Below are positions 17,396-42,015 of a stretch of 64,000 bases of DNA, piece by piece. The notes under the pieces are model-generated. The model was not told the DNA's origin. It did not search any database and worked only from the letters and a program-made list of their open reading frames with translations. The first letter of the stretch is position 1. Each line of letters begins with the position of its first letter. Source of the stretch: Schmidtea polychroa. Lineage: Eukaryota. Made by a program: the position numbers and the translations under genes. The stretch is taken from positions 14,138,001 through 14,202,000 of the forward strand of contig CM097885.1 in the NCBI GenBank assembly GCA_044892525.1, in the 5' to 3' direction.

Positions 17396-20300
17396 ATGGA
17401 TAATAATAATGTGGAGATTAAAACTGAAGTTGTAGATGACCCAGGAGAAATTGATCAAGAAATTAATGAGTTGCAGAGATTAGAAACAATGGAAAATGAG
17501 GAAATGAGATCGGAAAATGAGGTTACAAGGGATATCGAGGAAATGAGCACCGATAATAGGATACTACCGAACATAGATGAGATGAAAAGCGAAGAGAACT
17601 TCGTTGAAACGAAAAATGACATTGCGATATGTCGGAAAAAACAGAATGATGCGGAAATTGAATCTTTGAGTTTAGATAAATCGAGCGAAACTGAGCGTTT
17701 AGATGAATCAAACGAGACTGAACGAATATTAAAAAGTTTAGTTACGGAATTGTACTTGTTAGATGAAACTGAAACAGAAGATGATACTTCGGAGGGGGAG
17801 GAAAGAGTTGTAAAAAGATTGGCAACGGAATTAAAGAGGAGATTACCGTCGATAATTAAAAGAAATTATGAAGAAAAGGAATTTTGTGAGGAAGCAGTGA
17901 TTGAGGACCTAACACGAACTGAGTTGGATCGAGATGTAATATTGACAGCGTTAGCTTATATAATATTGGAGATTGGTATTTATGGTTGTCTGGAAAATGA
18001 CAGTTCAAAATCATTGATAAAGAAAGCTACGGAAATGACGAATAAATATTTGGCTAGGTGGATCGCAAACAATGGCGGATGGGAAAATTTGATACAAAAG
18101 GCTGAGAGCCCAAAAACCGAGACAGTGAGGAAAAAGGGAAAACTCGCATTTCCATGGTTGATGATTTCTGTTATTATGTTATTGGGAATAATAAACACGA
18201 CGAATTCATTGGTGGCATACGACTGCTCCCAAACCGAAATGGGAAGAGTATATTCGTTGGTAAACGTAGCAGAGTGTTCGGATGCATATCCAGTAAAATT
18301 AAAAGTGACAAATCCAGTAAAATATTATGTATATCAAGAATCGGGATTTCGACGAGCAAAGGTGAGAGAGTGTACAGTGAAACGAACTACTTTTGTATTT
18401 TATTGTGGAAAATGGAGTCACTCATCGATGGTGAAAATGCAATCGATACCTAGACCGATAGAAATAATTCCAGAGAATTGTTTGGCAGCCTTTCAAACAG
18501 GACAGTTGAAAATCAATGCAGATATCAAACTACAAGCAAAGCTTAACCACAAAATCCGTGAGACTGTAACCGTGCGAGGGATAATAAAGTCGAATGGTGA
18601 TTGCCAAGGAGAGCCATACAAAGTAGACGATGCTATAATTGACAAAGCCGTGGTTGTGGAAGAGTACATGTCAGAATTAAGAGAATTTGATGGATCATTT
18701 GATGATGATACTGGTAAACTACAAACACATCCATTCTGCAACATGAAACAATCTAGCTGTCAGACAGGAGAATCAATCTTGGTGTACGATGTCGATACCA
18801 AAAAGTGCAATTTAGTGCAATTGAAGTCAATGAGTTTTAAAGAAATAACGGGAGAACAGATCAGGGAAAAGCCTGAGAAAATAAGAATGGATCCAGCAAC
18901 GAGTACAACAACGAGAATCACACCTCTACGGATGAAAGATACTCCAACAGTGTTAATGTCAACCTCGGAGGAAGATGGGATGCGATTCCTGAGAAAAGAA
19001 ACTAAAACAAAGTGTGGACAAAGTGTCTATGAGACAAATTATAAAGGTATATATGTATCTCAGAAGATGATTACAGAGGCCCAAACAAACATACATGCCG
19101 GAGATATTAAGTTGACAAATTACTTTAATAACAAAATAGATTATTTATTTCACTTTGGTCAAAATACTGTTGAAAATGTGTACCGAGAAGTTATTATAAA
19201 TGATTGCAATCTCAACAAAGAAATACTCCGAAATCGGATGGCAATGGCTATAACCAATCCTAATTTGGTAGCACCAATGTTAATTGCAGAAAATGGAGTG
19301 TTCGCCAGAATTTTCGGTGAAGCACTATATAGCTATAAATGTAAAGCGGTACCAGTTAAACTGACAAAGTATGACCAATGCACCAACGAGTTACCAGTGA
19401 ATTTAAATGGAAAGTTGCGATTTATGGAGCCTGTAACACGAATCTTACTGGAAGAGGACACGAAACCGAAAGTATTACAGTGCAATAGATTGTTAGCACC
19501 ATTATACAGACTAACACCAGAATCTTGGATTGCATTACCAGATCATCGAGAAGTAAAGACACCGGAAAACTTAGAATTGACAGAATTACAATATCTGGTA
19601 AATTTTACGTCGTTAGAAAAATTGTCGCAAAGTGGAATTTACTCGAACGAAGACATTGAGGAAGCTCGCAGAAACTTGTTATTTCCATCAAAGAAAGAAA
19701 GAGTAATAATGGAAATGGTAGATACAATTCTCCCAAGCGGAAGTGGGAAGGTAAATTATGAGTATTTATTAACTCCAGATCATTACAAGAAAGCGACGTA
19801 TAATACAATGAAAAAGATCTGGGGAAAGTTTATGTTCATTGGACAAGCGTGTGCCGGATTGATTGGAATTTATGTAATATGTGTTGTAATCAAAGTAATA
19901 ATATCGCAGGTCTTATCAACACACAGATTATACGCGATCACAGGTTGGTCGTGGAAACTAGTAATTGGTTGCATACCATTATTGGCTAGATTCTTCATTA
20001 CTCATCATCAATATCAGGAGTTGGAGATACTCAAGGCTCGAATATTAAAGAAGAAAAAGGTGAGCTACGCTAGTACTACCCCTTCAAGGGACGAGAACAA
20101 TGACAATGACAACGAGGGTGATAGTGCACCGTTATATGTTGACAATCAAGAACTAAGTGGAATGAATAAAGAAGCGTTAAGAACCTATCAAATCTTAAAA
20201 GAGCCACTGTTGAATGCGAGTAGCGTAGACACGTTTACAAAACTGTGTATACCAAAATCATTTATGCAACCAGCACCAGTGTATCCAGTTGATCGATTAC

Positions 20301-23300
20301 GAGAGATGAAACCAGTGGAAAATATCGCATTGCAATGTGAAGGAATGGTAGGAGAGAGAATTGAGCCTTCTAGCGCAGAGATCGAGAGAAAAAACATGTT
20401 AGGCTTACCATGCAACTACTCAATGATGACATTAACAAAAAGAGGAAAGCAACCCCGAATATTTATACAAATGAACAAACATAAAGTGGAAGCTTTAGTT
20501 GATTCGGGATCTAGTCACACAATAGTATCGGAAAATGTATTAAACGCGAAGGAAAAAAGGCGAATAAAGCCTACCGACGAAATAGTGAGGTCATTATCAA
20601 AAAATGAATTAAACATAATTGGACAACTTAACGTCATATTCCATATTGGAGATCGAATAATAGCGCACGATGCGCTCATAATGAAGGGAAGTCCAGTACG
20701 ATGTCTGATCGGCATGGATCTATTAGAGCAGCTGGACGGAGTCTCACTTGATTTAAAGACAGGTAATTTGATAGCAGGAGAAACAGGAGAAATAATTCAC
20801 AGGGCAGGTGAAGTGTTTGTGAATCAGACATTGACAATACCACCACAATCGGAGATGGTATATTGTGCAAATACCATGAGTGTGGATAATGGTGATTTTA
20901 TATTCGAACCAAATCAAACGCTAGTCGAAAAATATGATTTACCGATATGTGACGAAGTTGTCAAAGTGAAAAATCAGATAGTACCAGTCCATATAACGAA
21001 TAGCAGTAAGAAACCGGTTCAGCTACACCCAAAAACAAAATTGGGAAAATTATCAAAAATGTCTATTGAAACAAATTGCAAAATACCAAGAAACGTCAAA
21101 GTGTATAAGGAGCCTGAAGTGGTAAGCAATGATTTAAATGAGATGCAGAAAAAGGAATTTACAAAACTGTTGAGAAAATACCGAGATATCTTTGCTAAAC
21201 ACGAATATGATTTAGGTTTAACCAATGTAATTGAGCATGAAATACCGTTATTAGACGAAACTCCAATAAAAATAAAGCCATACAGAATCCCCTACGTTCA
21301 TCAAGACGAAAGCGATAGACAGATTACAGCAATGAAGGAATTTGGAATAATTCGAGATAGCGCGTCGCCATTCTCCTCATCAATAGTGATAGTTAAGAAA
21401 AAGGATGGAGACTTACGATTTTGCGTAGATTATCGGAAGCTAAATCAAGTTACGAGGAAAGACACTTATCCAATTCCAGTACCCCAAGAAATGTTTGATC
21501 AAATGGGAGAAGCACGATATTTCACTGTTATTGATTTAAACAAAGGGTACAATCAATTTAGAGTAAAAGAGGAAGATAGAGGAAAGACGGCGTTCTCGGA
21601 TGGCAAAGGACTGTATGAGTTCAACGTGTTACCATTTGGATTAACAGGAGCCCCAGCTACATTCCAACGAGGAATGAATTATGTGTTACGAGGAATTCGA
21701 CATGCATTGGTATATATCGACGATATAATAATATTTTCAAATGATTTTGAAGAACACCTGAAGGATGTAGAAACTGTATTTAAACGGCTCAAAAGTGCAA
21801 AATTAAAAATCAAACCATCGAAATGTGAATGGGGCAAAGCAGAAGTGATTTATGTAGGACATATAATATCACGGCGAGGGTTACAAACTAATCCAGATAA
21901 CATCAAAAAAGTGGAAGAGTACCCAGTACCAAAAGATGCCGATGAGGTTAGACAATTTTTAGGTTTGGCGAGCTATTACAGAAAATTTATAAAAGATTTC
22001 TCTCATATCGCACAACCATTGAATACGTTACTAAAGAAAAACAATAAATTTATTTGGGGACAAATGCAACAAAACGCTTTCAATACATTAAAAGAGAAAT
22101 TAGTAACAACTCCTATATTAAGATGTCCAGATTTTACAAAACAATTTATCTTGATGACGGATGCAAGCAACGTTGCATTGGGTGCGGTATTGGGACAAAA
22201 ATTTGAAGGTGAAAAGGACCATGTAATAGCATACGCAAGCAGATCATTGAGGCCTCACGAGAAAAACTACTCAACGATTGAAAAGGAAACGTTAGCGTTA
22301 GTGTATGGAATTACTACTTTTAGACAATATTTATTGGGCAGAAAATTTACTGTTTATACAGATCATAATCCATTACAGTGGTTAATGAAACACAGAGATT
22401 CAGCCAGTAAGTTAATACGATGGTCAATTGCCCTCCAAGAATACGACTTTGAGATTAAATACCGGACAGGTAAAGCTAACGCGAATGCAGATGCAATGTC
22501 GAGAATCCCAGAAAATAATAGTGAAGGGACACCTGAAAAAGTGGAAGGCACTATATTCGCAGCAATCAAAGCTGTTAATGATATGTCTGAACTTCAAAAT
22601 GATCAGGAAAACGATAGTGAATTAAAACAATTTATGGAACAAGCGGTCAAAATAAGAAAAGAACAAGACTGGAAACGACTTACAGATGCAAACAGCAAAT
22701 ATGTAATTCATAATGGAATACTTAAATGTTGGAAAAATGGGGAAGCATTAATTATTATACCAGCCAAGCACAGAGATGCATTACTGATGCAGTATCATGA
22801 TGGAGCGTTGGGAGGTCATTTGTCAACGCGCAAGACGCTATCAAGATTAAAATTGAAATACTTTTGGCCGACAATGGAACAAGACGTGAAAAATTGGTGT
22901 AACAGTTGCAAAGTATGCATCACCCGCAGAAATACTGGTAAAAAGATTAAAGTACCATTAAAACCGATGCCAGTACCTGCAGCACCAATGGAGATGACGG
23001 CAATGGATATTCTGGGACCATTACCGGAAACAACAAAAGGAAACAAATACATTGTTGTTTTTTGTGACTACTTTACCAAATGGCCAGAAGCATACGCTAT
23101 TCCAAACCAAAAAGCAGATACGATTGCTAGAATATTTGTGGAAAACATAATATTTCGCTATGGTACTCCAAAGAAATTGTTAACTGATCAAGGAAAGAAC
23201 TTTCAAAGCGAGATGTTTAAATCAATCACAGACTTATTTGGAATTTGGAAATTGAATACGTCACCATATCATCCACAAACTGATGGATTGGTGGAACGAT

Positions 23301-25054
23301 TTAATGGGACACTGATAAATATGATCTCATCATATGTGAATCGAAAACAGAAAGATTGGGACGACTTCATAAAGCCGTGTCTGTTTGCCTACAGAAATGC
23401 AGTAAATCAAAGTACAGGAGAGACCCCTTTTTACTTGATGTATTTAAGGAAAAATAATATGCCGATTGATCTCAAATTCCAACCACCAATTTCACAATAT
23501 ATGGAGATACCCGATTATAAAGCATTGATGCAAGAAAGAATGCAGTCAGTATGGACTAAAGCCGGTTTGACAATAAAGCACAACCAAGAGAAATATAAAG
23601 AATCATACGATAAAAAAGCACATGCGCATGGCATAAAGATTGGAGATCTAGTATATCTGAACAGACCGGAACCTCTCAAAGGTTTATCGCCTAAATTGCA
23701 AAGACCATTTAAAGGACCCTACAAAGTGTGCGACACCACCGAAACCAATTTGAAGTTATTACCATTCAGGAGTAAAAAAGCTAACCCGATGATTGTGCAT
23801 GCAAATCGATGTAAACTAGTGCCAGAGGAAGATGAATCTAGATACCCCTTAAGATCCAAGCAGAATAAAGTAACGGGTCAAACAAAATTGAAACAGAAAT
23901 TCACGAAAAATCCAACACCAGTCAGCTACATCAATAAGATATTATATGTAGCAATAATGCTGATGTTAGTAACAGTTGCGAGCGGCAAAAAGATTGATTT
24001 ACCATATGCGGTAAACAAAATCCGAGGAATGGAGAAAATACATATATATTCCACTCTAACAAATATAGTATGGAGCTGTAAATGCGAGATCGCAGACCAA
24101 ATAGAAATTATTAATTTACTAGACAATACGGCACCAGTGGTAGAACTGAATTATGATAAAGATATAGTTGCGGTACGAAAGTTAAAGCCAAATTACAAAT
24201 ACCAATGGCTGTTGAGACAGAACATGTCAATGTGGTACACGCAAATTCCGATAGAAGTGCACACAAAAGAGATGCGAAACTTGATCGAGATAGAACCAGA
24301 GATAAACGGAATCAATATATATTGGAAGCCAGTGGACTTGGTGAAAGTGCGAATCACATTTCAAGGGTTAAATGTCGACACCCTTAACTCGCGAAAATCA
24401 TTTATCCGCTACGAGAAATTGAAAATGAATCAAAATTATTCAGTTAATGCGAACTACTACGAGAACATATGCCTCGAAAATGGAACGGTAGTGAGAAACC
24501 AATGGTCACGATTTAAGAGTGAGACCCAGTCTATCTATCTCAGAGACGAGTCAAATCGTATAACCCTGAGTGTTGGAAATGGACCGGTAACGATATATAG
24601 AAAATCAGGAAATGATGAAAGAGTTGTTATTATCTACAAACAAAAAACCCTGACTATATTAGATGCCGGTAATCATTTTTTTACACTTTACACTTCTGAT
24701 TTAGAGACGGCATGGGAATTAACAGTTAAATATCAGCGATGGATAACCGATCCAGGCAGATGGCAAACAGTTTTCGTGGAAGTCAAGACAATCAATGAAT
24801 CGAAACGAAAATCATATACAACCACATCACCTCTCCAATTACCGACCCAAGAGACGACAAAACCTAACTCAAACAAACTAATGATGATAAATTCGGATTT
24901 GACAGTCAACTATTGTGAATATCTCATTTACATTTTAATAACAGGTTTTCTCATCTTATCAATAACATTCATAATCATCACCATCTTGATATGTGTAAAA
25001 GAGAGACAACTAACTATCCTTCAACCACCATCATATTATGAGACAAGACTGTAA
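17396..25054 (+). CDS. Uninterrupted 2552-aa polyprotein remnant: Bcl-2-like, SP plus chuvirus-like glycoprotein plus TM, protease, RT, RNase H, integrase, SP plus ectodomain plus TM
   Basis: WIANNGGWENL; WLMISVIMLLGII..LVAYDCS; LVDSGS; LPFGL..YIDD; TDAS..EKETLA..YTDH..ADAMSR; HHCC; MDILGP..TDQG..VERFN; FKGPY; ILYVAIMLMLVTVASG; C-terminal YLIYILITGFLILSITFIIITILICV. Confidence 0.93.
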   Translation: MDNNNVEIKTEVVDDPGEIDQEINELQRLETMENEEMRSENEVTRDIEEMSTDNRILPNIDEMKSEENFVETKNDIAICRKKQNDAEIESLSLDKSSETERLDESNETERILKSLVTELYLLDETETEDDTSEGEERVVKRLATELKRRLPSIIKRNYEEKEFCEEAVIEDLTRTELDRDVILTALAYIILEIGIYGCLENDSSKSLIKKATEMTNKYLARWIANNGGWENLIQKAESPKTETVRKKGKLAFPWLMISVIMLLGIINTTNSLVAYDCSQTEMGRVYSLVNVAECSDAYPVKLKVTNPVKYYVYQESGFRRAKVRECTVKRTTFVFYCGKWSHSSMVKMQSIPRPIEIIPENCLAAFQTGQLKINADIKLQAKLNHKIRETVTVRGIIKSNGDCQGEPYKVDDAIIDKAVVVEEYMSELREFDGSFDDDTGKLQTHPFCNMKQSSCQTGESILVYDVDTKKCNLVQLKSMSFKEITGEQIREKPEKIRMDPATSTTTRITPLRMKDTPTVLMSTSEEDGMRFLRKETKTKCGQSVYETNYKGIYVSQKMITEAQTNIHAGDIKLTNYFNNKIDYLFHFGQNTVENVYREVIINDCNLNKEILRNRMAMAITNPNLVAPMLIAENGVFARIFGEALYSYKCKAVPVKLTKYDQCTNELPVNLNGKLRFMEPVTRILLEEDTKPKVLQCNRLLAPLYRLTPESWIALPDHREVKTPENLELTELQYLVNFTSLEKLSQSGIYSNEDIEEARRNLLFPSKKERVIMEMVDTILPSGSGKVNYEYLLTPDHYKKATYNTMKKIWGKFMFIGQACAGLIGIYVICVVIKVIISQVLSTHRLYAITGWSWKLVIGCIPLLARFFITHHQYQELEILKARILKKKKVSYASTTPSRDENNDNDNEGDSAPLYVDNQELSGMNKEALRTYQILKEPLLNASSVDTFTKLCIPKSFMQPAPVYPVDRLREMKPVENIALQCEGMVGERIEPSSAEIERKNMLGLPCNYSMMTLTKRGKQPRIFIQMNKHKVEALVDSGSSHTIVSENVLNAKEKRRIKPTDEIVRSLSKNELNIIGQLNVIFHIGDRIIAHDALIMKGSPVRCLIGMDLLEQLDGVSLDLKTGNLIAGETGEIIHRAGEVFVNQTLTIPPQSEMVYCANTMSVDNGDFIFEPNQTLVEKYDLPICDEVVKVKNQIVPVHITNSSKKPVQLHPKTKLGKLSKMSIETNCKIPRNVKVYKEPEVVSNDLNEMQKKEFTKLLRKYRDIFAKHEYDLGLTNVIEHEIPLLDETPIKIKPYRIPYVHQDESDRQITAMKEFGIIRDSASPFSSSIVIVKKKDGDLRFCVDYRKLNQVTRKDTYPIPVPQEMFDQMGEARYFTVIDLNKGYNQFRVKEEDRGKTAFSDGKGLYEFNVLPFGLTGAPATFQRGMNYVLRGIRHALVYIDDIIIFSNDFEEHLKDVETVFKRLKSAKLKIKPSKCEWGKAEVIYVGHIISRRGLQTNPDNIKKVEEYPVPKDADEVRQFLGLASYYRKFIKDFSHIAQPLNTLLKKNNKFIWGQMQQNAFNTLKEKLVTTPILRCPDFTKQFILMTDASNVALGAVLGQKFEGEKDHVIAYASRSLRPHEKNYSTIEKETLALVYGITTFRQYLLGRKFTVYTDHNPLQWLMKHRDSASKLIRWSIALQEYDFEIKYRTGKANANADAMSRIPENNSEGTPEKVEGTIFAAIKAVNDMSELQNDQENDSELKQFMEQAVKIRKEQDWKRLTDANSKYVIHNGILKCWKNGEALIIIPAKHRDALLMQYHDGALGGHLSTRKTLSRLKLKYFWPTMEQDVKNWCNSCKVCITRRNTGKKIKVPLKPMPVPAAPMEMTAMDILGPLPETTKGNKYIVVFCDYFTKWPEAYAIPNQKADTIARIFVENIIFRYGTPKKLLTDQGKNFQSEMFKSITDLFGIWKLNTSPYHPQTDGLVERFNGTLINMISSYVNRKQKDWDDFIKPCLFAYRNAVNQSTGETPFYLMYLRKNNMPIDLKFQPPISQYMEIPDYKALMQERMQSVWTKAGLTIKHNQEKYKESYDKKAHAHGIKIGDLVYLNRPEPLKGLSPKLQRPFKGPYKVCDTTETNLKLLPFRSKKANPMIVHANRCKLVPEEDESRYPLRSKQNKVTGQTKLKQKFTKNPTPVSYINKILYVAIMLMLVTVASGKKIDLPYAVNKIRGMEKIHIYSTLTNIVWSCKCEIADQIEIINLLDNTAPVVELNYDKDIVAVRKLKPNYKYQWLLRQNMSMWYTQIPIEVHTKEMRNLIEIEPEINGINIYWKPVDLVKVRITFQGLNVDTLNSRKSFIRYEKLKMNQNYSVNANYYENICLENGTVVRNQWSRFKSETQSIYLRDESNRITLSVGNGPVTIYRKSGNDERVVIIYKQKTLTILDAGNHFFTLYTSDLETAWELTVKYQRWITDPGRWQTVFVEVKTINESKRKSYTTTSPLQLPTQETTKPNSNKLMMINSDLTVNYCEYLIYILITGFLILSITFIIITILICVKERQLTILQPPSYYETRL

Positions 25055-25229
25055 ATTGTGATCTGCATGAATAGTGTATAAAAATATATTACATTTATAT
25101 TAACAATGTGCATGTTTTATAAGTACCATAGGATGAATTATGTAATTTGTTTGAGATTCGAAGCGAGGTGTTGATGCTTTGCGAATAAAGAGTGATACAA
25201 AAAAAATAACTATCATTTAATTTCAGAGA

Positions 25230-25475
25230 ATGCAAGAAGCCTCGGAGATGACATGCAAAGAGTGTAAAACAAGTACGCAAGAACTAAAACAAAAGTTTCG
25301 TAGCATGCAGGGCAGAATAACAGATTTGGAGGAAGAAAACTTCCGTCTGAAAAGGCGGTTGGACCGTTTGGAAATCTTATTGTTTCAACACGAAGCCGAT
25401 TTCGCGATGTTTCGAATGAGAGTAGAAGAAATGGAGGAATCGGAAGATGATGGTGAGATAAATCAATTAGACTAA
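25230..25475 (+). CDS. Small accessory ORF (81 aa): CxxC, leucine-zipper-like coil, acidic tail
   Basis: CKEC then heptads ITDLEEENFRLKRRLDRLE; ATG 4 nt after a splice acceptor (TTTAATTTCAG, 25226); GC-richer than flanks. Confidence 0.6.
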   Translation: MQEASEMTCKECKTSTQELKQKFRSMQGRITDLEEENFRLKRRLDRLEILLFQHEADFAMFRMRVEEMEESEDDGEINQLD

Positions 25476-25554
25476 AAAAATAAATTATTTAAACGGAGGA
25501 ATCGGAAGATGATGGTGAGATAAATCAATTAGACTAAAAAAATAAATTATTTAA

Positions 25555-25770
25555 ACGGCATGGGAATTAACAGTTAAATATCAGCGATGGATAACCGATC
25601 CAGGCAGATGGCAAACAGTTTTCGTGGAAGTCAAGACAATCAATGAATCGAAACGAAAATCATATACAACCACATCACCTCTCCAATTACCGACCCAAGA
25701 GACGACAAAACCTAACTCAAACAAACTAATGATGATAAATTCGGATTTGACAGTCAACTATTGTGAATAT
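25555..25770 (+). repeat. 216-bp direct repeat of 24707-24922, preceded by a 62-bp tandem duplication (25433-25558)
   Basis: Direct sequence identity; ACGG at the junctions. Confidence 0.93.
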
Positions 25771-26200
25771 ATTTTTTTCGTCCTCGAGAGAAAAAAAAAT
25801 AATAGTTAAATAATTATAAGTAAATTAACAAATAATCAAATGAATAAACAAATTGATATAAATAAATAAGTAAAAAAGTGATAAATTAAATGAATGAATA
25901 ATAGATAAAAATGAACAAAGTTAAACGAGCAAATAGAATAACTCAAATAAATGTTGCAAATAATGAAATGACTACCTTAAATGAGCATTAGAAATAAATA
26001 ATATGACTGATTAGTAATTAATGAATTAGCATAGCTATATAGCAATGGGTAACCCACTGGGCGAGAGGACAAAATTATAAACAAGTAAGGAATAATTTCA
26101 CATTAGTAGTAACAAAGACTAATCGCGAAGAGGGACACAATTACCCCACCCTTTCTAGCATAATTAAAAACAAAGGTATGCTGAACATTTATTCAAAGTT

Positions 26201-26502
26201 TTATTCGTCATCAGAGTCCAACAGAACGGGACTTTGGATGCCACAATCCCATTCCCTGCGTACATTGCAAGGCGGGCGTCTTTCAAACCTACTGCCTGTA
26301 TCCACACAGGCAAAGGTACGTTTCAATCCCTTTCGACGCGGTGGTAAAGGGACCCTGAAAAAGAAATTAAAAACCTGTTAGATGGCAGTTAAATAACCAT
26401 TGCATAACATCGAGATGTTCAAACTTAGGTTCTGGCACAGCCTAAAATAGTAAGGGTTGAAAAGAAAAAATGAAATAAATACTATGTAAAACTCCGTACC
26501 AT
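26201..26502 (-). CDS. Predicted 3-exon antisense gene, 66 aa (exons 26502-26500, 26441-26398, 26354-26201)
   Basis: GCCATG, then GTACGG..TTTTAG intron (58 nt), then GTTATT..CTAAC..TTTCAG intron (43 nt); spliced frame MAVPEPKFEHLDVMQWVPLPPRRKGLKRTFACVDTGSRFERRPPCNVRREWDCGIQSPVLLDSDDE*; AATAAA at and after the stop. Confidence 0.6.
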
Positions 26503-29500
26503 GGCGCCCTCGACAAATAATTAGTGCAGGGAAGTAATTGATTTTAAGAATTACGTAATAAATTAATAAGTATAAATACGGCTAAAATTGTCAGAAAAAT
26601 ACGAGTAGCTGTAATTAGAGGTTTGCTTTTAGTATAAATACAAAATCAAAAATCAAAAATATATGACCCAAAACATGAGTGTAGGTAGTTGCATAAACAA
26701 ATTAACGAATTAAAATTAAAAAGTAAATAAGTTAATTTAATATGCAACACGAGCACTTGCAATCACCGGGGTTTGGCTACCCTGGACAGCGATTGCAAGT
26801 GTTCGGTTACTATGAAGGTAGTTGAGGACAGCATGGTAAAAAGAATCACAAATACAAAAAATAACAAAAGATAGTTAATCACTTACGTCCATAGTAATTG
26901 AGGGATGGCGTTACTAAAATTCAAAAAAAAAAATATGAAAAGAAAAATAAAATATAAAATGCTTACTTCAAGATTGGCAAGACAAAACTAACGAAAAGTG
27001 GTAAAGCAGAAACTTATATAGAACGCTTATCAGTACAGACTACGTTGACAAACTACAGAGTAATTAATTAGAAAGCTTATCAGCACGGCTACGTAAGAAA
27101 CCACAGGGTAATTAATTATAGAGCCTATCGGTATCGGCTACGTCAAAAACCGCAGGATAAGAAAAAATTCATTCGGAATATTAATGTTCATCGCAGATAC
27201 CTTATCAGGCTGAGTAAACAGTCGGTCGGTGCGGGGGAGATTAACTTTTTACCATGCTGCGAGCGAAATAAACCAACAAATTATTAATAACAAAAAATTA
27301 TTTTTAAATCATAATATTAATAATAATAGTAATAATGATGAAAGAAAAAAGAAAAAAAAATAAAATAAAATAAATAAATTACCTTGCAACTGAGAATAAA
27401 TTAGGCATATATTCTGCACATAAAAATCGATTTCCGCAATCAATAAAAAAAAAAAAAAAAAAAAAAAATTTATCAGTGGTTTATCAAAATAAAAGCCCCA
27501 GAAAATTCGAGTCACAATGGCTTCCAAAATTCAATATGCGCTCCCTAGAAATATTTAAAACCAACCAATTCTGTTATTGGGTTGAGCTAATTTTTGTTCC
27601 CGGGTCGATAATAAAATTTGCGGTTGTGTCTGATAAGTAGAATGACTGACCAATCAGTTTGAAATATTCATTGGGATGAATTTTGAAGAAAATTGACACA
27701 CATATACACGCAAGTGCACTCATTTATAGATACACACAAAGAACCCCGATTAATGTACAAGTACCGTGAACTACTTAATTGTAAAGACACACACACAGAC
27801 AGACACACAAGCATGATTCCAACAAATATAATTTAATTTAAAAATTTTTTTTTTGAAACAACTAAATAACTTTTTATGATTGCAATTTTTTTTATGAATT
27901 AATTATTCAAATCAAACTTTATTTTCATCTCAGAGAATTAAATTTTTTTGAGAATTTACGTGGATAATAAAATTAAAACAACTTTTGAATGTTAAATGAA
28001 TATGTAGACCACATAATTTAGCTAATTGAATGTCTTTAATTTGGCCATTTTGCTTCAATTTCCACTTTTGTATAAAGAAATTATATTAAATCAATTTCAC
28101 CTTTAATACTTTTTCAGTGTTCTGTACCTCAGAATACTCAAATGAAATACTGTACGACACCATTTTTGAGTAATTCACATTTTGCGATTAAATAGTTTCA
28201 TTTATTTTAATTACCTCCTAATGAAGATTTTTAAGTAAAATAATTTTCACTATGTTTTCAATTTTTTTTTAAAATAATAATCTAATTAAAATATTTAATA
28301 TGAATTAATCATGAAACTTAAATTTTTGAAGAAGTTTATGTTTCACGTAGATCATCAATTCTTAACATTCCTCAATCATTGCTTCTAACTGCATAGCATT
28401 CTGGAACCATATATTCATATCTCTAATAAATTCATCATTTATTCTGAGAGAGGTTTTAACTACAATAACCTTACCAGACTGTCTTTGGTCTACTCGACCA
28501 TTTGAAAGATCCTGAAAATGTCTAATATCAGATAATATCTTTAACTGTGTTTCTGATCAGAATTAAATAATCCTTATATTTCATGCCTTTAATCCTTTAA
28601 TCCTTCACCGTCGCTGATTGAACGCGAATAATTTGAAAACATATAAATAAAATTACGTTTTAATATATATCATTAATATCCTTCACCGTCGCTGATTGAA
28701 CGCGAATAATTTGAAAACATATAAATAAAATTACGTTTTAATATATATCATTAATAAAGTAATAGAGAGACAATTAATGAGAAAAATCAGTTGTGATAAA
28801 CTGATATAGTTTCAAAATTTCTCCAATAGCAGGAATTATCGAATCGACCAATCGAATTCGTTTCGGATGACAGAAATATATTCTCTGTGCTGCCTATAAA
28901 CATACTTGAGCAAAATATTTATCAAAAATCGTATAGAAATTATCGAATCGACCAATCGAACTTGAGCAAAATATTGATCAAAAAGATTTTATCATTTTAA
29001 TAATAAAGAAACAAATTCAATATCAACTTTTTCTAAATGATTTTATTGTTTTGACATATTATCAAAGATTTTAGTCCCACGAAATTAGCCTGCCAATTTA
29101 CAAAAACTGATAAATCTTAAGTTATTACCTGGTAACAAATATAGTCGCTCATTTCATAACCACTTGGAGTTTCAGTTAATTAATTTTCGGCTTATTTCTG
29201 ATAAGAATTATGACGCGTAGGCATTATAAACGAGAATCTTAAAAACAATGATTTATTTACCATTATTCATTCTTATCAATTTTATTCCAGAAATCACATT
29301 AATAATACATAAATTAATCAAAGTCAAAATGTTCTCCATCTATAATGCGGAGAACTCGACATTAGTTGCTTATTTTTAGATAACTATTATATTTGGAGTT
29401 TATATTAGTTTTCCATATGCAAATTTTAGTTCATTGTTAAGTCTGTTTCCATTCCCAGACTTTATAAAATTCAGTGACGAAAACAATTGTTTACATGAAT

Positions 29501-30001
29501 ATGTTAAACAAAACATTATTAAAAGATAATCTTACAGTGTTATCATTGTAATAAGTATCTGGTGAAATTTGATATATATTTTTTTTGATATATAATTTTA
29601 AATTAAAAATAATGGCGATTTCAACACTGCCTAAATATATTTAAGTTATTATTACCGTTAGGGGGTTTCAATAGGCCAAGATTTCATTTAAATTCAATTA
29701 AATCGTTTGATCAATAATTAATAAAAACCACGACCAATTTCATCAAAAAAAAAGGGGGGTTTCAATAGGCCAAGATTTCATTTAAATTCAATTAAATCGT
29801 TTGATCAATAATTAATAAAAACCACGACCAATTTCATCATTTCTCATATTTTTGGGTTATTATTAATGAAATATCAAGGTTTTTATATCTTTCGACATTG
29901 GCGAAAACAATTGCTCATTGTAACATTATTTATGTATACTTGGTTAAAATTCAACAAAACTTTCCATTAAAACACAAATTTCGAGGACGAAAAGATTTTT
30001 T

Positions 30002-30014: not shown

Positions 30015-31055
30015 TGTTGAGGTCCGTAAATTAAAATTGAAAATTTAAATAAAATTTAGAATAATAATTCAAATGGAAAGTAAGCGAGGAAAAAAGGCAA
30101 ATAAAAGCGGGATCGTGCACAGAATCAATAGTAAAGGAAAGTGCGATGGAAACAGTATTAGAAAATGCAAAAAGCAATTACGAAAGGCGAGAATCCGGAA
30201 ATCCGAGAAAAATCAATAAATGGAAAAATCATCGAAATCGAATGGGAAAAACGGGACAGGTATAGATTAGCTAATGGTCAACAAGATGATGGTCAGGGAT
30301 TTATCAGAAAAGGGTTAGGAAGGGTCGAAAAACATTCAAACGTATGAAAACAGAAAACGTTAATTAATTAATTAATTGGCTAATGGAAAACCCGAGCCAA
30401 TGGAGAACCCGAGAGATAAAGGAAACCCGAGCTGGGTAAACAAGAAGAAAGGCAAACAAAAGGAAGATTTGGGCCCATTAGCTTGACACAATGATTAATG
30501 GGAAAAGAGTAAGGAGAAGATAGCGCGCGTAGGAAGACCGGTAGGGCCATTAATTATCTGGATTCGTTGGACCATTATGGATGACAGCCGAAGCAAACAC
30601 GTAGGAGAAAATGTCAAACGAAAGATTGGCTCGGCAATAACCATTTGTCATCCTGATTTCGAGGAGTATATAAGCAAAGGGAAAATCAGAGAAAATCGGC
30701 ATTTTGCCTCAGGTAGGTTAAGAAGAATTAGACTGTAGGAAAAGTGGTAAACGAATTAGGGAAGTAGGGAAAAGAAGAAATAGAATTAAGAATACGGAAA
30801 GGCGAAAAGGGATCAAACCAAAGAGAAACCGAGGAAAAAGAGAGTCGAGATAACTAAAGGATCAAAAGGTGAATATTGTTTGTTTGCAAAGCATCAACGC
30901 CGAGCGGAGAATCGTATAAAACTTTGATTGGTAATTGTAACGTGATAATAAATTGTGAACTTGTTGTTTCAATATACGTTGGGTCGTTCATTGTTTTACT
31001 TTAAAGAACACCAGGAGTCAGAGAGAACCGACTTGAAATAATCCAAAACCCAACA
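30015..31055 (+). repeat. Shared LTR (1041 bp): 3' LTR of copy 1 and 5' LTR of copy 2
   Basis: TGTTG..CAACA; preceded by PPT and followed by PBS; TATATAA 30667, candidate donor CAG|GTAGGT at 30713, AATAAA 30947. Confidence 0.96.
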
Positions 31056-31455: not shown

Positions 31456-34400
31456 ATGGCAAATGATAATGCTGTTATGCCTCTCAATAGAGAGATGATT
31501 GACTTCGCAAGTTGCCAGAAATTACCCGTCAATCAATATGGAGGAGACCCTGTTGAATTTGCAGATTTCATGGGAGATTATTATATGTACGCCTCAGCAT
31601 ACGGATGGACACAAGCCATTATGGTTCAGAGATTCCCACTCTATCTGAAGGGTGCGGCAAGAGAAGCCTGGCAGCAAGTCGACAAACGAAATGTTGGCAA
31701 TGATTGGACAAAATTGAAGGATGCAATGGCACTGAAACTGGTTGGTGGAGATATCAAAAGAATCATGCGACAGAAATTTTATAATCGAGTTCAAGGTCCA
31801 GATGAATCGGTCAGTGAGTTTGCTTATCATCTGACCACTTTAGCAGATAAAGCCTTTGAAGTTAAACCAGACCAAGCAGAAATGGCCAAGCAGGTTAAAG
31901 AGCTATTAGAAGATCAGTTTATAACCGGAGTCCACTCCGAAATCAAAAAAGCCCTATGTTATGTGGATTTTTCCAATTTTGATGAGCTCGTGAAGAAAGC
32001 CATGAAGATAGAGCTGAATTTAAAAAGTGCAAAAAGATCAGATGCTTTTGGAGTTAATGTGGAGAGACGTGAGCGATCAATTACGCCTGTGAGAGCACCA
32101 TGGGATGAAAAGAAAATAAATCAAATCAGTAGTCCAATTTTGAGACCAAATAATAGATTTCAAGCCAGTAGATCAGCCATGAACGTACAATCAAATGGAC
32201 AGGTAAATAATCCTCAATGCGAACATTGCAAAAAGTCTGGACACTACTCAAATCAATGTTGGTTCAAATATGGGAGAAATCCCAGCCCTAACAAGAGATT
32301 TACAGAAAACAAACGGATCAGCAGTGATGTCGAATGCTATCGATGCGGAAAGAAAGGGCATATTAGCAGAAACTGTTTTACCAGATCAAGGTCATCGTCA
32401 ACGTCACCTTCACCACAAAGGGACAAAGTGAATACAAATGGACAGATCCAATGTCATTCGTGCAAGGGATACGGCCACATGGCTCGATCATGCCCAAGGA
32501 ACTCAGAAAGATTCAACAGACCTATCTTAAAGAAATCAATCAGATTCCAAGAAGATATGCCAAACACTAGTAATATGACATATGCTCAGAGAGAAGAATT
32601 TCAAGACAAAATGGAAAAGGAATTTCGAGAAATGCGACAGAAGCTGAACAAACTAGTGGCGAAATTTGAATCAGATGAGGAAACTGAATCTCATATGATA
32701 ATGGGAACCGTGTCAGAAGGTGAGGGAAAACCTGCCACGAAAGTGCGAAAGATCGCATCAGATGAGAATCCGACTACACTGTTAGCACGAGTCGAAAAAT
32801 GGCTTGAGAAAATGGAAACTGACAACTCCCAGTTGAAACGATGGATCGCAGAACTCAGTGTGATGTCACTAACCCAAAGCGAACTAAAGAGAGCCATAAA
32901 TTTATGTGCAAAGTTATTCAAAGGAAACAGAGACGATGAGATACGTAAACAAATGCAAAAGTTTGGCAAGGCTTTACGGTCAACAAGGGATTTAGCTGAT
33001 ATCATAGTGGAAACGACGGGACTTGATAATGTGAAGTGCCAATTCCGTGTAAATGCCTACGGACAAATCAGAGAGCTAAAGGAGCGAATACTGCGTCAAT
33101 ACAGTGGATGGCAAGTGCAATTAAAATATGAGAATCGATGTCTGGAAGACGAAGAGTACTTAGTAGATTGCGGTCTGATACCAGGCTGGAAAAATAAAGT
33201 AAATGTTATTAATGCTGTTAATACTTTGAATTCAGACAGACAAAATTGGGAAAAGATTCTAGCAGATTTACAAGATACCCTGTATGCAGGGAATAGAGAT
33301 AAAATTAATGCGAGTATCGACTTCATAATGAGCATCGAAATGGATCGAGACATGAAAGAAGGGTTGTTTGAATGCATCGTACCGTATACGAATAAACCGA
33401 CGAGTTATCAGGCAAAACTAAAAGAGGTAATCCGAAAACTAGGACATGATTATGAGGCGGCAGACGATAGTGCGAAGTCTTTGATAATAGCGTTAAATAT
33501 TGCGGATCAAAGGATTGAATATTATCAGGAACATTGGAGTGTAAAAGCAAAGAAAATACGACAAAAAGCAGCGGAGATATTAGGTAATGAAGGAATTATC
33601 GTGTTGACGTTCAAAGGACGAGAATTGGATGATGACGAATATTTATTAAACTACGGATGTAACCCAAATTGTATTAATAATGTGTACGCAACAAAACAAA
33701 GTGATGAAATGGAAAGAGATGCGGTAATAGTACCGTTTTGGCCTCTATATGAGGAAATGGATAATAATAATGTGGAGATTAAAACTGAAGTTGTAGATGA
33801 CCCAGGAGAAATTGATCAAGAAATTAATGAGTTGCAGAGATTAGAAACAATGGAAAATGAGGAAATGAGATCGGAAAATGAGGTTACAAGGGATATCGAG
33901 GAAATGAGCACCGATAATAGGATACTACCGAACATAGATGAGATGAAAAGCGAAGAGAACTTCGTTGAAACGAAAAATGACATTGCGATATGTCGGAAAA
34001 AACAGAATGATGCGGAAATTGAATCTTTGAGTTTAGATAAATCGAGCGAAACTGAGCGTTTAGATGAATCAAACGAGACTGAACGAATATTAAAAAGTTT
34101 AGTTACGGAATTGTACTTGTTAGATGAAACTGAAACAGAAGATGATACTTCGGAGGGGGAGGAAAGAGTTGTAAAAAGATTGGCAACGGAATTAAAGAGG
34201 AGATTACCGTCGATAATTAAAAGAAATTATGAAGAAAAGGAATTTTGTGAGGAAGCAGTGATTGAGGACCTAACACGAACTGAGTTGGATCGAGATGTAA
34301 TATTGACAGCGTTAGCTTATATAATATTGGAGATTGGTATTTATGGTTGTCTGGAAAATGACAGTTCAAAATCATTGATAAAGAAAGCTACGGAAATGAC

Positions 34401-37400
34401 GAATAAATATTTGGCTAGGTGGATCGCAAACAATGGCGGATGGGAAAATTTGATACAAAAGGCTGAGAGCCCAAAAACCGAGACAGTGAGGAAAAAGGGA
34501 AAACTCGCATTTCCATGGTTGATGATTTCTGTTATTATGTTATTGGGAATAATAAACACGACGAATTCATTGGTGGCATACGACTGCTCCCAAACCGAAA
34601 TGGGAAGAGTATATTCGTTGGTAAACGTAGCAGAGTGTTCGGATGCATATCCAGTAAAATTAAAAGTGACAAATCCAGTAAAATATTATGTATATCAAGA
34701 ATCGGGATTTCGACGAGCAAAGGTGAGAGAGTGTACAGTGAAACGAACTACTTTTGTATTTTATTGTGGAAAATGGAGTCACTCATCGATGGTGAAAATG
34801 CAATCGATACCTAGACCGATAGAAATAATTCCAGAGAATTGTTTGGCAGCCTTTCAAACAGGACAGTTGAAAATCAATGCAGATATCAAACTACAAGCAA
34901 AGCTTAACCACAAAATCCGTGAGACTGTAACCGTGCGAGGGATAATAAAGTCGAATGGTGATTGCCAAGGAGAGCCATACAAAGTAGACGATGCTATAAT
35001 TGACAAAGCCGTGGTTGTGGAAGAGTACATGTCAGAATTAAGAGAATTTGATGGATCATTTGATGATGATACTGGTAAACTACAAACACATCCATTCTGC
35101 AACATGAAACAATCTAGCTGTCAGACAGGAGAATCAATCTTGGTGTACGATGTCGATACCAAAAAGTGCAATTTAGTGCAATTGAAGTCAATGAGTTTTA
35201 AAGAAATAACGGGAGAACAGATCAGGGAAAAGCCTGAGAAAATAAGAATGGATCCAGCAACGAGTACAACAACGAGAATCACACCTCTACGGATGAAAGA
35301 TACTCCAACAGTGTTAATGTCAACCTCGGAGGAAGATGGGATGCGATTCCTGAGAAAAGAAACTAAAACAAAGTGTGGACAAAGTGTCTATGAGACAAAT
35401 TATAAAGGTATATATGTATCTCAGAAGATGATTACAGAGGCCCAAACAAACATACATGCCGGAGATATTAAGTTGACAAATTACTTTAATAACAAAATAG
35501 ATTATTTATTTCACTTTGGTCAAAATACTGTTGAAAATGTGTACCGAGAAGTTATTATAAATGATTGCAATCTCAACAAAGAAATACTCCGAAATCGGAT
35601 GGCAATGGCTATAACCAATCCTAATTTGGTAGCACCAATGTTAATTGCAGAAAATGGAGTGTTCGCCAGAATTTTCGGTGAAGCACTATATAGCTATAAA
35701 TGTAAAGCGGTACCAGTTAAACTGACAAAGTATGACCAATGCACCAACGAGTTACCAGTGAATTTAAATGGAAAGTTGCGATTTATGGAGCCTGTAACAC
35801 GAATCTTACTGGAAGAGGACACGAAACCGAAAGTATTACAGTGCAATAGATTGTTAGCACCATTATACAGACTAACACCAGAATCTTGGATTGCATTACC
35901 AGATCATCGAGAAGTAAAGACACCGGAAAACTTAGAATTGACAGAATTACAATATCTGGTAAATTTTACGTCGTTAGAAAAATTGTCGCAAAGTGGAATT
36001 TACTCGAACGAAGACATTGAGGAAGCTCGCAGAAACTTGTTATTTCCATCAAAGAAAGAAAGAGTAATAATGGAAATGGTAGATACAATTCTCCCAAGCG
36101 GAAGTGGGAAGGTAAATTATGAGTATTTATTAACTCCAGATCATTACAAGAAAGCGACGTATAATACAATGAAAAAGATCTGGGGAAAGTTTATGTTCAT
36201 TGAACAAGCGTGTGCCGGATTGATTGGAATTTATGTAATATGTGTTGTAATCAAAGTAATAATATCGCAGGTCTTATCAACACACAGATTATACGCGATC
36301 ACAGGTTGGTCGTGGAAACTAGTAATTGGTTGCATACCATTATTGGCTAGATTCTTCATTACTCATCATCAATATCAGGAGTTGGAGATACTCAAGGCTC
36401 GAATATTAAAGAAGAAAAAGGTGAGCTACGCTAGTACTACCCCTTCAAGGGACGAGAACAATGACAATGACAACGAGGGTGATAGTGCACCGTTATATGT
36501 TGACAATCAAGAACTAAGTGGAATGAATAAAGAAGCGTTAAGAACCTATCAAATCTTAAAAGAGCCACTGTTGAATGCGAGTAGCGTAGACACGTTTACA
36601 AAACTGTGTATACCAAAATCATTTATGCAACCAGCACCAGTGTATCCAGTTGATCGATTACGAGAGATGAAACCAGTGGAAAATATCGCATTGCAATGTG
36701 AAGGAATGGTAGGAGAGAGAATTGAGCCTTCTAGCGCAGAGATCGAGAGAAAAAACATGTTAGGCTTACCATGCAACTACTCAATGATGACATTAACAAA
36801 AAGAGGAAAGCAACCCCGAATATTTATACAAATGAACAAACATAAAGTGGAAGCTTTAGTTGATTCGGGATCTAGTCACACAATAGTATCGGAAAATGTA
36901 TTAAACGCGAAGGAAAAAAGGCGAATAAAGCCTACCGACGAAATAGTGAGGTCATTATCAAAAAATGAATTAAACATAATTGGACAACTTAACGTCATAT
37001 TCCATATTGGAGATCGAATAATAGCGCACGATGCGCTCATAATGAAGGGAAGTCCAGTACGATGTCTGATCGGCATGGATCTATTAGAGCAGCTGGACGG
37101 AGTCTCACTTGATTTAAAGACAGGTAATTTGATAGCAGGAGAAACAGGAGAAATAATTCACAGGGCAGGTGAAGTGTTTGTGAATCAGACATTGACAATA
37201 CCACCACAATCGGAGATGGTATATTGTGCAAATACCATGAGTGTGGATAATGGTGATTTTATATTCGAACCAAATCAAACGCTAGTCGAAAAATATGATT
37301 TACCGATATGTGACGAAGTTGTCAAAGTGAAAAATCAGATAGTACCAGTCCATATAACGAATAGCAGTAAGAAACCGGTTCAGCTACACCCAAAAACAAA

Positions 37401-40400
37401 ATTGGGAAAATTATCAAAAATGTCTATTGAAACAAATTGCAAAATACCAAGAAACGTCAAAGTGTATAAGGAGCCTGAAGTGGTAAGCAATGATTTAAAT
37501 GAGATGCAGAAAAAGGAATTTACAAAACTGTTGAGAAAATACCGAGATATCTTTGCTAAACACGAATATGATTTAGGTTTAACCAATGTAATTGAGCATG
37601 AAATACCGTTATTAGACGAAACTCCAATAAAAATAAAGCCATACAGAATCCCCTACGTTCATCAAGACGAAAGCGATAGACAGATTACAGCAATGAAGGA
37701 ATTTGGAATAATTCGAGATAGCGCGTCGCCATTCTCCTCATCAATAGTGATAGTTAAGAAAAAGGATGGAGACTTACGATTTTGCGTAGATTATCGGAAG
37801 CTAAATCAAGTTACGAGGAAAGACACTTATCCAATTCCAGTACCCCAAGAAATGTTTGATCAAATGGGAGAAGCACGATATTTCACTGTTATTGATTTAA
37901 ACAAAGGGTACAATCAATTTAGAGTAAAAGAGGAAGATAGAGGAAAGACGGCGTTCTCGGATGGCAAAGGACTGTATGAGTTCAATGTGTTACCATTTGG
38001 ATTAACAGGAGCCCCAGCTACATTCCAACGAGGAATGAATTATGTGTTACGAGGAATTCGACATGCATTGGTATATATCGACGATATAATAATATTTTCA
38101 AATGATTTTGAAGAACACCTGAAGGATGTAGAAACTGTATTTAAACGGCTCAAAAGTGCAAAATTAAAAATCAAACCATCGAAATGTGAATGGGGCAAAG
38201 CAGAAGTGATTTATGTAGGACATATAATATCACGGCGAGGGTTACAAACTAATCCAGATAACATCAAAAAAGTGGAAGAGTACCCAGTACCAAAAGATGC
38301 CGATGAGGTTAGACAATTTTTAGGTTTGGCGAGCTATTACAGAAAATTTATAAAAGATTTCTCTCATATCGCACAACCATTGAATACGTTACTAAAGAAA
38401 AACAATAAATTTATTTGGGGACAAATGCAACAAAACGCTTTCAATACATTAAAAGAGAAATTAGTAACAACTCCTATATTAAGATGTCCAGATTTTACAA
38501 AACAATTTATCTTGATGACGGATGCAAGCAACGTTGCATTGGGTGCGGTATTGGGACAAAAATTTGAAGGTGAAAAGGACCATGTAATAGCATACGCAAG
38601 CAGATCATTGAGGCCTCACGAGAAAAACTACTCAACGATTGAAAAGGAAACGTTAGCGTTAGTGTATGGAATTACTACTTTTAGACAATATTTATTGGGC
38701 AGAAAATTTACTGTTTATACAGATCATAATCCATTACAGTGGTTAATGAAACACAGAGATTCAGCCAGTAAGTTAATACGATGGTCAATTGCCCTCCAAG
38801 AATACGACTTTGAGATTAAATACCGGACAGGTAAAGCTAACGCGAATGCAGATGCAATGTCGAGAATCCCAGAAAATAATAGTGAAGGGACACCTGAAAA
38901 AGTGGAAGGCACTAGATTCGCAGCAATCAAAGCTGTTAATGATATGTCTGAACTTCAAAATGATCAGGAAAACGATAGTGAATTAAAACAATTTATGGAA
39001 CAAGCGGTCAAAATAAGAAAAGAACAAGACTGGAAATGACTTACAGATGCAAACAGCAAATATGTAATTCATAATGGAATACTTAAATGTTGGAAAAATG
39101 GGGAAGCATTAATTATTATACCAGCCAAGCACAGAGATGCATTACTGATGCAGTATCATGATGGAGCGTTGGGAGGTCATTTGTCAACGCGCAAGACGCT
39201 ATCAAGATTAAAATTGAAATACTTTTGGCCGACAATGGAACAAGACGTGAAAAATTGGTGTAACAGTTGCAAAGTATGCATCACCCGCAGAAATACTGGT
39301 AAAAAGATTAAAGTACCATTAAAACCGATGCCAGTACCTGCAGCACCAATGGAGATGACGGCAATGGATATTCTGGGACCATTACCGGAAACAACAAAAG
39401 GAAACAAATACATTGTTGTTTTTTGTGACTACTTTACCAAATGGCCAGAAGCATACGCTATTCCAAACCAAAAAGCAGATACGATTGCTAGAATATTTGT
39501 GGAAAACATAATATTTCGCTATGGTACTCCAAAGAAATTGTTAACTGATCAAGGAAAGAACTTTCAAAGCGAGATGTTTAAATCAATCACAGACTTATTT
39601 GGAATTTGGAAATTGAATACGTCACCATATCATCCACAAACTGATGGATTGGTGGAACGATTTAATGGGACACTGATAAATATGATCTCATCATATGTGA
39701 ATCGAAAACAGAAAGATTGGGACGACTTCATAAAGCCGTGTCTGTTTGCCTACAGAAATGCAGTAAATCAAAGTACAGGAGAGACCCCTTTTTACTTGAT
39801 GTATTTAAGGAAAAATAATATGCCGATTGATCTCAAATTCCAACCACCAATTTCGCAATATATGGAGATACCCGATTATAAAGCATTGATGCAAGAAAGA
39901 ATGCAGTCAGTATGGACTAAATCCGGTTTGACAATAAAGCACAACCAAGAGAAATATAAAGAATCATACGATAAAAAAGCACATGCGCATGGCATAAAGA
40001 TTGGAGATCTAGTATATCTGAACAGACCGGAACCTCTCAAAGGTTTATCGCCTAAATTGCAAAGACCATTTAAAGGACCCTACAAAGTGTGCGACACCAC
40101 CGAAACCAATTTGAAGTTATTACCATTCAGGAGTAAAAAAGCTAACCCGATGATTGTGCATGCAAATCGATGTAAACTAGTGCCAGAGGAAGATGAATCT
40201 AGATACCCCTTAAGATCCAAGCAGAATAAAGTAACGGGTCAAACAAAATTGAAACAGAAATTCACGAAAAATCCAACACCAGTCAGCTACATCAATAAGA
40301 TATTATATGTAGCAATAATGCTGATGTTAGTAACAGTTGCGAGCGGCAAAAAGATTGATTTACCATATGCGGTAAACAAAATCCGAGGAATGGAGAAAAT

Positions 40401-41713: not shown

Positions 41714-42015
41714 TTATTCGTCATCAGAGTCCAACAGAACGGGACTTTGGATGCCACAATCCCATTCCCTGCGTACATTGCAAGGCGGGCGTCTTTCAAA
41801 CCTACTGCCTGTATCCACACAGGCAAAGGTACGTTTCAATCCCTTTCGACGCGGTGGTAAAGGGACCCTGAAAAAGAAATTAAAAACCTGTTAGATGGCA
41901 GTTAAATAACCATTGCATAACATCGAGATGTTCAAACTTAGGTTCTGGCACAGCCTAAAATAGTAAGGGTTGAAAAGAAAAAATGAAATAAATACTATGT
42001 AAAACTCCGTACCAT
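41714..42015 (-). CDS. Second copy of the predicted 66-aa spliced antisense gene
   Basis: Same sequence as 26201-26502 (offset 15513); upstream region cut at 42084. Confidence 0.5.

Follow-up and report, generated by a model that had tools for sequence, protein, structure and literature searches.

Antisense accessory genes located between pol and the 3′ LTR are already known from LTR retrotransposons, and those described so far come mainly from plants and fungi. Antisense ORFs are carried in this slot by the maize Grande element (gene23), rice RIRE2 and Retand (TRP28) (PMC7264820; PMC11963269), while in Boty-like Ty3/gypsy elements of Botrytis and Sclerotinia the additional antisense gene is brtn (PMC4227169; PMC8365987; PMC7264820). 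Among animal LTR elements, the Mytilus Steamer-like element 1 has a 67-aa antisense ORF, AS-SLE-1, which is driven by the 3′ LTR and translated from an IRES, and neither introns nor selection are mentioned in the available excerpts of the source (PMC10974842). The HBZ gene of HTLV-1 encodes a spliced antisense nuclear regulator of the bZIP type, and its promoter lies in the 3′ LTR (PMC10186651). In planarian Burro elements env is placed in frame within one polyprotein and accessory ORFs occur, but the Burro section of the review describing them contains no mention of an antisense gene (PMC6431247).

We analyzed a window of 64,000 nt of Schmidtea polychroa DNA (all positions below without a contig name refer to it; genome context, PMC11410931), which contains two tandem elements of one family. 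The following features define the elements.

17396..25054, plus strand: env-protease-RT-RNaseH-integrase ORF of 2552 aa, in the element bearing the antisense frame, a copy without gag
31456..39039, plus strand: gag-ubiquitin-like-env-pol ORF of the second element, which displays the family layout
30015..31055, plus strand: LTR of 1041 nt, TG...CA, common to both tandem elements
41714..42015, minus strand: identical copy of the antisense coding part, inside a 4.9-kb internal duplication and cut off from the predicted promoter
46648..46949, minus strand: the second element's copy of this coding part, identical and with its upstream region

The order of domains in the single ORF is gag with zinc knuckles, a ubiquitin-like unit, a Monjiviricetes-type fusion protein, protease, RT, RNase H and integrase. 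In the ORF at 31456-39039 the env/fusion domain (PF24664) lies in frame between PF03732/PF00098 and protease-RT, and the ubiquitin match has an E value of 9e-4, which is below the curated cut-off. The polyprotein also contains a stretch that we take to be BCL2-like. The ORF at 17396-25054 matches 33751-41283 at 99.9%. The LTR at 30015-31055 is preceded by a purine tract and followed by a site resembling a primer-binding site, and it differs by 1 nt from the LTR at 50367-51407, so the family is young. The element is Burro-like Ty3/gypsy, with roughly 300–400 copies in the genome. It has the same one-polyprotein domain order as Burro/GYPSM1 of Schmidtea mediterranea, including env between gag and pol and a putative ubiquitin-like unit; however, Burro1/GYPSM1 exceeds 30 kb and has a 4,873-aa ORF with a MATH domain, while the element studied here is much shorter, has 1-kb LTRs, and showed no MATH domain in the four element ORFs that were scanned.

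Several rearrangements accompany these elements. The tandem duplication of 4.9 kb in the second element lies in window 37152-47022, and the identity of the copy at 41714-42015 runs up to the equivalent of position 26571. A further stretch, window 12597-16987, has a second copy at 56316-60661. The region immediately following pol contains, downstream of an acceptor-like TTTCAG, a sense ORF of 81 aa (25230-25475, plus strand) that encodes a leucine-heptad coiled coil and is possibly a second accessory gene; it has weak coiled-coil matches in Pfam and no shared indel in 71 copies. The short rearranged duplication behind it, at 25498-25772, was absent from the other copies examined. Past the predicted antisense promoter, the 3′ internal DNA (27400-30000) varies between subfamilies, and the piece at 28800-29600 was nearly whole in only 7 of 31 matches. 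Outside the elements, the window contains a host ARF-family gene (51699-52328, plus strand) with a single 47-nt intron at 52065-52111, and a RING/zf-TRAF ORF at 62527-63003 (plus strand).

The antisense frame (26502-26201, minus strand) is located between the end of pol at 25054 and the LTR start at 30015, which is the same slot as that of the plant and fungal genes. To assess its conservation, 154 whole-gene loci were used after exclusion of 6 partial ones, and collapsing of identical contexts left 125 distinct copies, which together with the window copy made a set of 126. The parts of the antisense unit, with their retention either in this set or in 110 rows for the upstream region, are the following.

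27021..27260, minus strand: ~50-nt repeats with GATA-like motifs upstream of the TATA box, weakly suggestive of an enhancer
27013..27020, minus strand: predicted TATA box TATATAAG, in 103 of 110 rows, with TATATAGG in 3 more
26967..26991, minus strand: predicted initiator TTAGT and 23-nt first exon; TTAGT kept in 106 of 110 rows
26914..26966, minus strand: predicted intron a, 53 nt, GTAAGC...TTTTAG; donor kept in 106 and acceptor in 105 of 110 rows
26887..26913, minus strand: predicted 27-nt exon ending ATG-GAC (ATG 26892), in phase with the downstream frame
26509..26886, minus strand: predicted intron b with a GTAAGT donor (26886); acceptor uncertain
26500..26508, minus strand: GGCGCCATG, with the ATG in a strong context; would be a micro-exon of 9 nt with the intron b acceptor at 26509
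26442..26499, minus strand: intron 1, 58 nt; 54–59 nt in 125 of 126 copies
26398..26441, minus strand: exon 2, 44 nt, containing Met14; length kept in 125 of 126 copies
26355..26397, minus strand: intron 2, of 43 nt in this copy and of 45 nt in 73 of 126 copies
26201..26354, minus strand: exon 3, 154 nt, 50 codons and stop, with a basic cluster, three invariant Cys and a SIM-like C-terminus
26188..26205, minus strand: two AATAAA signals; the one overlapping the stop codon is kept in 101 and the other (26193-26188) in 124 of 126 copies

The coding part had been proposed in an earlier note on this DNA, made from the sequence alone, and it could be reproduced base for base. The minus strand contains GCC-ATG at 26502-26500, 66 spliced codons, GT..AG introns of 58 and 43 nt, the latter holding CTAAC, and a stop codon that overlaps AATAAA; the PRRKGLKR and C-terminal VLLDSDDE motifs are both encoded in the spliced frame. 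The observation on the sequence is thus confirmed, while splicing itself was not observed. The intron sizes are host-like, as had also been claimed, because the ARF gene of the window has an intron of 47 nt, and introns of 42, 44, and 48 nt were found in Ras-family genes. From the five host intron calls made in Ras-family genes three were kept and two were judged to be artefacts. A planarian intron size peak of 45–85 bp has been reported (PMC13594981).

The introns also differ from the exons in composition, with a GC content of 0.26 and 0.28 versus 0.43 and 0.51. The branch motif of intron 2 is a full TACTAAC in 114 of 126 copies, and its T-tract and CAG are kept as well. The two-intron model was obtained in none of 1000 dinucleotide shuffles of the 3′ region, a figure that is optimistic, since the intron rules were set after the candidate had been seen. 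By the same rules neither strand of pol or gag contained an intron-like stretch, and neither did the 3′ region on its plus strand. With relaxed rules, the minus strand of the 3′ region had four acceptors, of which three belong to the antisense unit, versus one on its plus strand and one in pol. Translation continued into intron 1 runs into a stop in all but one of the 126 copies, and the case for this putative intron comes from consensus and phase, not from selection. The sense genomic RNA retains antisense-strand introns, which therefore pass on with each new copy of an element. Among 163 matching loci none lacked the introns, and the deletions listed there lie off the intron boundaries.

The antisense unit extends about 500 nt upstream of the coordinates originally given for it. 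The earlier model missed a conserved TATA box, an initiator, and two more predicted introns. The A of the initiator, at 26989, is located 31 nt from the TATA box. ATGGAC followed by GTAAGT is present in 105 of 110 rows, and the promoter and upstream splice signals are each retained in 102–106 of 110 rows; common variants of these signals fall inside their consensus patterns. A look-alike TATA and initiator site at 26041 kept its initiator in only 21 of 154 loci. The GATA-like repeats are less convincing, with three WGATAR motifs in 240 nt versus 3.9 per kb window-wide. For intron b the acceptor could be either a weak GAG at 26509, which follows CACTAA(T/C), or the one at 26442. We infer that transcription starts at 26989 and that polyadenylation takes place after the second AATAAA.

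The proposal that the first coding exon consists of the start codon alone fared less clearly. The ATG at 26502 is kept in 123 of 126 copies, but only two of seven shared substitutions in exon 2 are synonymous, and both ATG 26892 and Met14 offer alternative starts. Since the routes from all three ATGs share one frame, the choice affects only the N-terminus, which we place provisionally at ATG 26502, at slightly worse than even odds, with ATG 26892 or Met14 otherwise.

The pattern of substitutions among copies argues that the frame encodes a protein. The ATG, the four splice dinucleotides, and all 66 open codons are intact in 110 of 126 copies. Among substitutions found in at least three copies 17 of 27 are synonymous, versus an expected fraction of 0.23 (p = 1.1e-5), while 3 of 17 doubletons and 17 of 73 singletons are synonymous, and the difference between shared and singleton changes is significant (Fisher p = 3.4e-4). 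The ratios for singletons and doubletons, which are near expectation, are explained by decay after insertion. The signal is located in exon 3, where 15 of 20 shared changes are synonymous versus 12 of 58 singletons (p = 2e-5; one TAA-to-TAG change was taken as silent and one double change as two replacements). There was no synonymous excess in exon 2, where the respective numbers are 2 of 7 and 5 of 15. The claim of an antisense coding frame is thus supported as purifying selection acting on exon 3.

The excess does not depend on how the copies were chosen. Without the loci picked by protein the counts are 17 of 27 shared versus 16 of 71 singletons, and for 50 copies picked only by a flanking motif they are 9 of 12 versus 11 of 36. 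In the other haplotypes seen in RNA runs all four listed exon differences, mapped by coordinate offsets, are synonymous. The copies are at most 12% diverged from the window copy and recombining, with most variants requiring 2–5 changes on the tree, and hence the shared variants are not fully independent. The positive controls were weak, because only 2 of 5 shared changes were synonymous both at the 3′ end of pol and in the sense coiled-coil ORF. The distribution of indels is weak evidence, since they cluster in intron T-runs, which are prone to slippage in any case, and length is held just as well in the 58 nt that precede the ATG. Taken together, the cassette is very likely a real antisense coding unit under selection.

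The frame is conserved within the family, while the two relatives compared showed no homologue. In a sister family (16 stretches at 8 loci) and in a larger Burro-type element of the same genome (6 stretches), whose integrase is 54% identical to that of the element studied here, there was no match to exon 3 better than an E value of 0.035, and that match fell outside the 3′ side of the element. The search for relatives in other species yielded four distant pol homologues.

RNA evidence was sought in 8 of 24 runs, of which two were raw single-cell runs from one study, five were contig sets guessed to be RNA, and one was of unknown kind. About 2% of each single-cell run was sampled, with 838 and 1382 reads aligned, while the guessed-RNA runs (share 0.38–0.40) carry other haplotypes. 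The minus-strand spliced reads expected from the antisense gene were not found, as no joint at intron 1 or intron 2 was present in seven RNA or RNA-like runs, which contain mostly sense RNA of other haplotypes. Unbroken unspliced contigs spanned the gene in three runs (X1, X8, and X10). The raw reads came mostly from the plus strand and had oligo-A tails at plus-strand A-runs, and they are read as sense, unspliced RNA of the element. In run X23, 19 minus-labelled reads covered intron 2 versus 23 for exon 3. As a percentage of plus-labelled reads, the minus-labelled ones made up 6–8 in the gene, 1–2 in predicted intron b, and 8–19 further upstream.

The only joint in run X23 (3 reads with 2 starts) can be read as linking 26438 to 26887. 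One end coincides with the predicted donor and the other falls 3 nt beyond the intron 1 acceptor; the joint is in frame, but it is non-canonical and its reads are plus-labelled. A simple deletion may explain it, as similar random deletions occur among copies. From 36 alleles listed in the RNA runs 13 were absent from the best-matching genome locus, and a pattern for one such allele had no genome matches. Because the RNA reads carry fixed alleles that the genome loci examined lack, they derive from a small number of loci in another strain. Overall, these data weigh against the gene being expressed now in the sampled runs, but they are no test of the young copies.

The lack of spliced reads in the runs examined would fit the possibility that the cassette was a gene in ancestral source elements and is now silent or functions only as RNA, so that antisense transcription, perhaps together with a hairpin, would damp the element via double-stranded RNA or PIWI, with the peptide being secondary. 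A strong hairpin at 26746-26808, within predicted intron b (z scores of −6.2 for the plus and −7.2 for the minus strand), would be in line with this, and its commonest variant, found in 60 of 159 loci, preserves pairing on the antisense strand only. Non-coding roles of antisense transcripts are noted in reviews (PMC7264820; PMC10186651). On the other hand, the hairpin, although present in 159 loci, shows no compensatory double changes, and a search of 24900-31500, hairpin included, gave no Rfam matches. The frequent variants of young subfamilies are synonymous, including the first-position changes at 26281 (49 copies) and 26221 (29 copies), which constraint at the RNA level does not predict. 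We therefore regard this explanation as rather improbable, and we retain the reading of the cassette as a protein-coding frame.

Whether this protein requires splicing of intron 2 was considered separately. Exon 3 has no ATG or Met, and the unspliced route, from Met14 through intron 2 into exon 3, is open in only 61 of 126 copies, which indicates that intron 2 is needed. A protein made by such read-through would agree with the 45-nt length of the intron in 73 of 126 copies and with the fact that all RNA seen was unspliced. However, while the length of intron 2 is divisible by three in 77 copies, it is not in the other 49 of the 126, and among 19 copies of an older group with a stop inside intron 2 the spliced frame is kept in 16. 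Common variants within the intron also change the residues that read-through would add, and TACTAAC, the T-tract, and CAG are conserved. Intron 2 is likely spliced, and translation through it is very unlikely.

The host-type appearance of the promoter and introns could also be explained if a host gene or a piece of it had been captured and was riding as a passenger, and the neighbouring 3′ DNA, which varies between subfamilies, looks recently acquired. Yet the cassette is about as numerous as pol and is selected within the family. In a first look at the genome the cassette had 344 candidates and the pol end 304, versus 26 for DNA located 2.5 kb further on, although these counts are rough and the 344 may include a tandem array. 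This array, which extends from C3:28248553 onwards (loci L132 and L230), consists of at least 28 units of ~865 nt, each made of exon 3, part of exon 2, and the 3′ flank of the cassette. No host paralogue was found among the 150 of 409 genome candidates that were scored, all of which were element copies with 98–100% identity. A passenger gene is thus highly improbable, while a distant host gene is a possible origin of the selected cassette. In the homologue searches exon 3 alone (50 of 66 aa) was used as the query. They found no homologue by word index, among 1.84 billion sequence representatives, in an atlas, or in metagenome and viral contigs; no Pfam family matched at E values up to 0.1, and the best match in PDB had an E value of 0.49.

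Least probable of all is that the synonymous bias derives from a 67-codon sense ORF (26178-26381, plus strand), whose third positions coincide with those of exon 3, with the antisense splice signals being incidental. This ORF has no stop in the window copy, lies on the strand of the RNA seen, and has 14 of 22 shared substitutions synonymous. However, its frame is intact in 74 of 126 copies, while the antisense frame is intact in 110; in one RNA set all four runs carry a changed ATG for it; and the changes at 26281 and 26221 are silent on the minus strand only, while just one rare change (4 copies) is silent only on the plus strand.

The selected antisense frame is thus best explained, with a probability of roughly 0.6, as a gene with its own internal promoter and up to four host-type introns, encoding a protein of 53–70 residues that is likely a motif-based nuclear adaptor. 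Transcription would proceed from the internal TATA/initiator promoter, antisense to the element between pol and the 3′ LTR, and splicing through up to four introns would yield the protein, which would serve the element as an adaptor in the nucleus. As such a protein would act in trans from a separate promoter, it could be made with the LTR promoter shut.

We infer this function from the motifs alone. Of the 110 intact copies, 106 retain VLLDSDDE, 101 retain RRKGLKR, and all 110 have the three Cys. The SIM-like core with an acidic tail arose in only 0.8% of shuffles, and thus the SIM-like C-terminus pointed out earlier holds as both conserved and rare by chance. The NLS-like PRRKGLKR is likewise present and conserved, but a basic cluster is common by chance (34% of shuffles); PxxPxR occurred in 10%. 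The sequence PVLL-DSDDE fits the loose form of the SIM, a four-residue core with three V/I/L followed by acidic residues or Ser. The SIM is a loose motif, and viral SIM proteins are known (PMC12751080). In flies a SUMO ligase is tied to Piwi silencing (PMC11663942), and in planarians SMEDWI-2 represses Burro1 and Burro4 (PMC8532177). These data make a role as a SUMO decoy plausible. The hydrophobic and acidic C-terminus would bind SUMO and compete with SUMO-dependent silencing of the element, which is the most likely single mechanism suggested by the sequence, although as such it is tentative. A search for the host SUMO gene gave as top matches tandem 228-nt units, which were read as ubiquitin.

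The most far-reaching version, in which the cassette of this env-bearing animal element is a complete host-style antisense micro-gene, equipped with a promoter, four splice steps between tiny exons and a poly(A) signal, and encoding a 66-residue SUMO decoy against PIWI/SUMO-dependent chromatin silencing, independent of the LTR, with sister families carrying other 3′ cargo such as an ISG20/SDN1-like exonuclease, appears unlikely as a whole. If the SUMO-decoy reading is true, the transposon would encode its own counter-defence against silencing by nuclear piRNAs. The family is young and has a high copy number, and RNAi and PIWI knockdown are routine in planarians, which makes the function directly testable. 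The locus also illustrates that annotation based only on ORFs overlooks selected multi-exon micro-genes in animal retroelements.

In comparison to the described systems, the Grande, RIRE2, and Retand ORFs resemble the antisense frame in slot, orientation, and presence in most copies (PMC7264820; PMC11963269). Transcription of Grande gene23 starts from an upstream promoter of its own, and its product is nuclear; here, too, the predicted promoter is internal. The plant ORFs are long, mostly above 600 bp, and introns are not mentioned in the available excerpts, in contrast to the ~66-aa, multi-exon frame studied here, which has no sequence similarity to them; in Pfam, exon 3 has neither a TRP28 domain (PF04195) nor a bZIP match. 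The brtn gene occupies the same slot, but its elements are fungal and chromodomain-bearing, and no homology to it was detected. AS-SLE-1 is similar in length, but differs in being driven by the 3′ LTR. The analogy to HBZ made in the earlier note is loose, as the gene model is antisense and spliced, but its promoter is predicted to be internal, ~3 kb from the 3′ LTR, and there is no bZIP. No prior report of the gene was found in the literature searched. Hence, the slot is already known for antisense accessory genes, while a version with four predicted introns and its own predicted promoter in an animal element is new.

Related elements of the same genome carry other ORFs behind pol. In the sister family, whose integrase is 58% identical, there is a 460-aa sense ORF (L073:2577-3959, plus strand; broken in L067) with a region similar to the ISG20L2/SDN1-like 3′-5′ exonucleases (best E value of 4.5e-6; no Pfam match), and a nuclease degrading small RNAs would, as cargo, be a candidate counter-defence gene. 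An unrelated frame at L229:979-1467 (minus strand) opens with what we take to be two tandem hydrophobic-acidic SIM-like motifs. The larger Burro-type element (L218:2143-3579, minus strand; C1 ~266–285 kb) has a separate sense ORF with RING and MATH (TRAF-like) domains behind pol, together with further ORFs.
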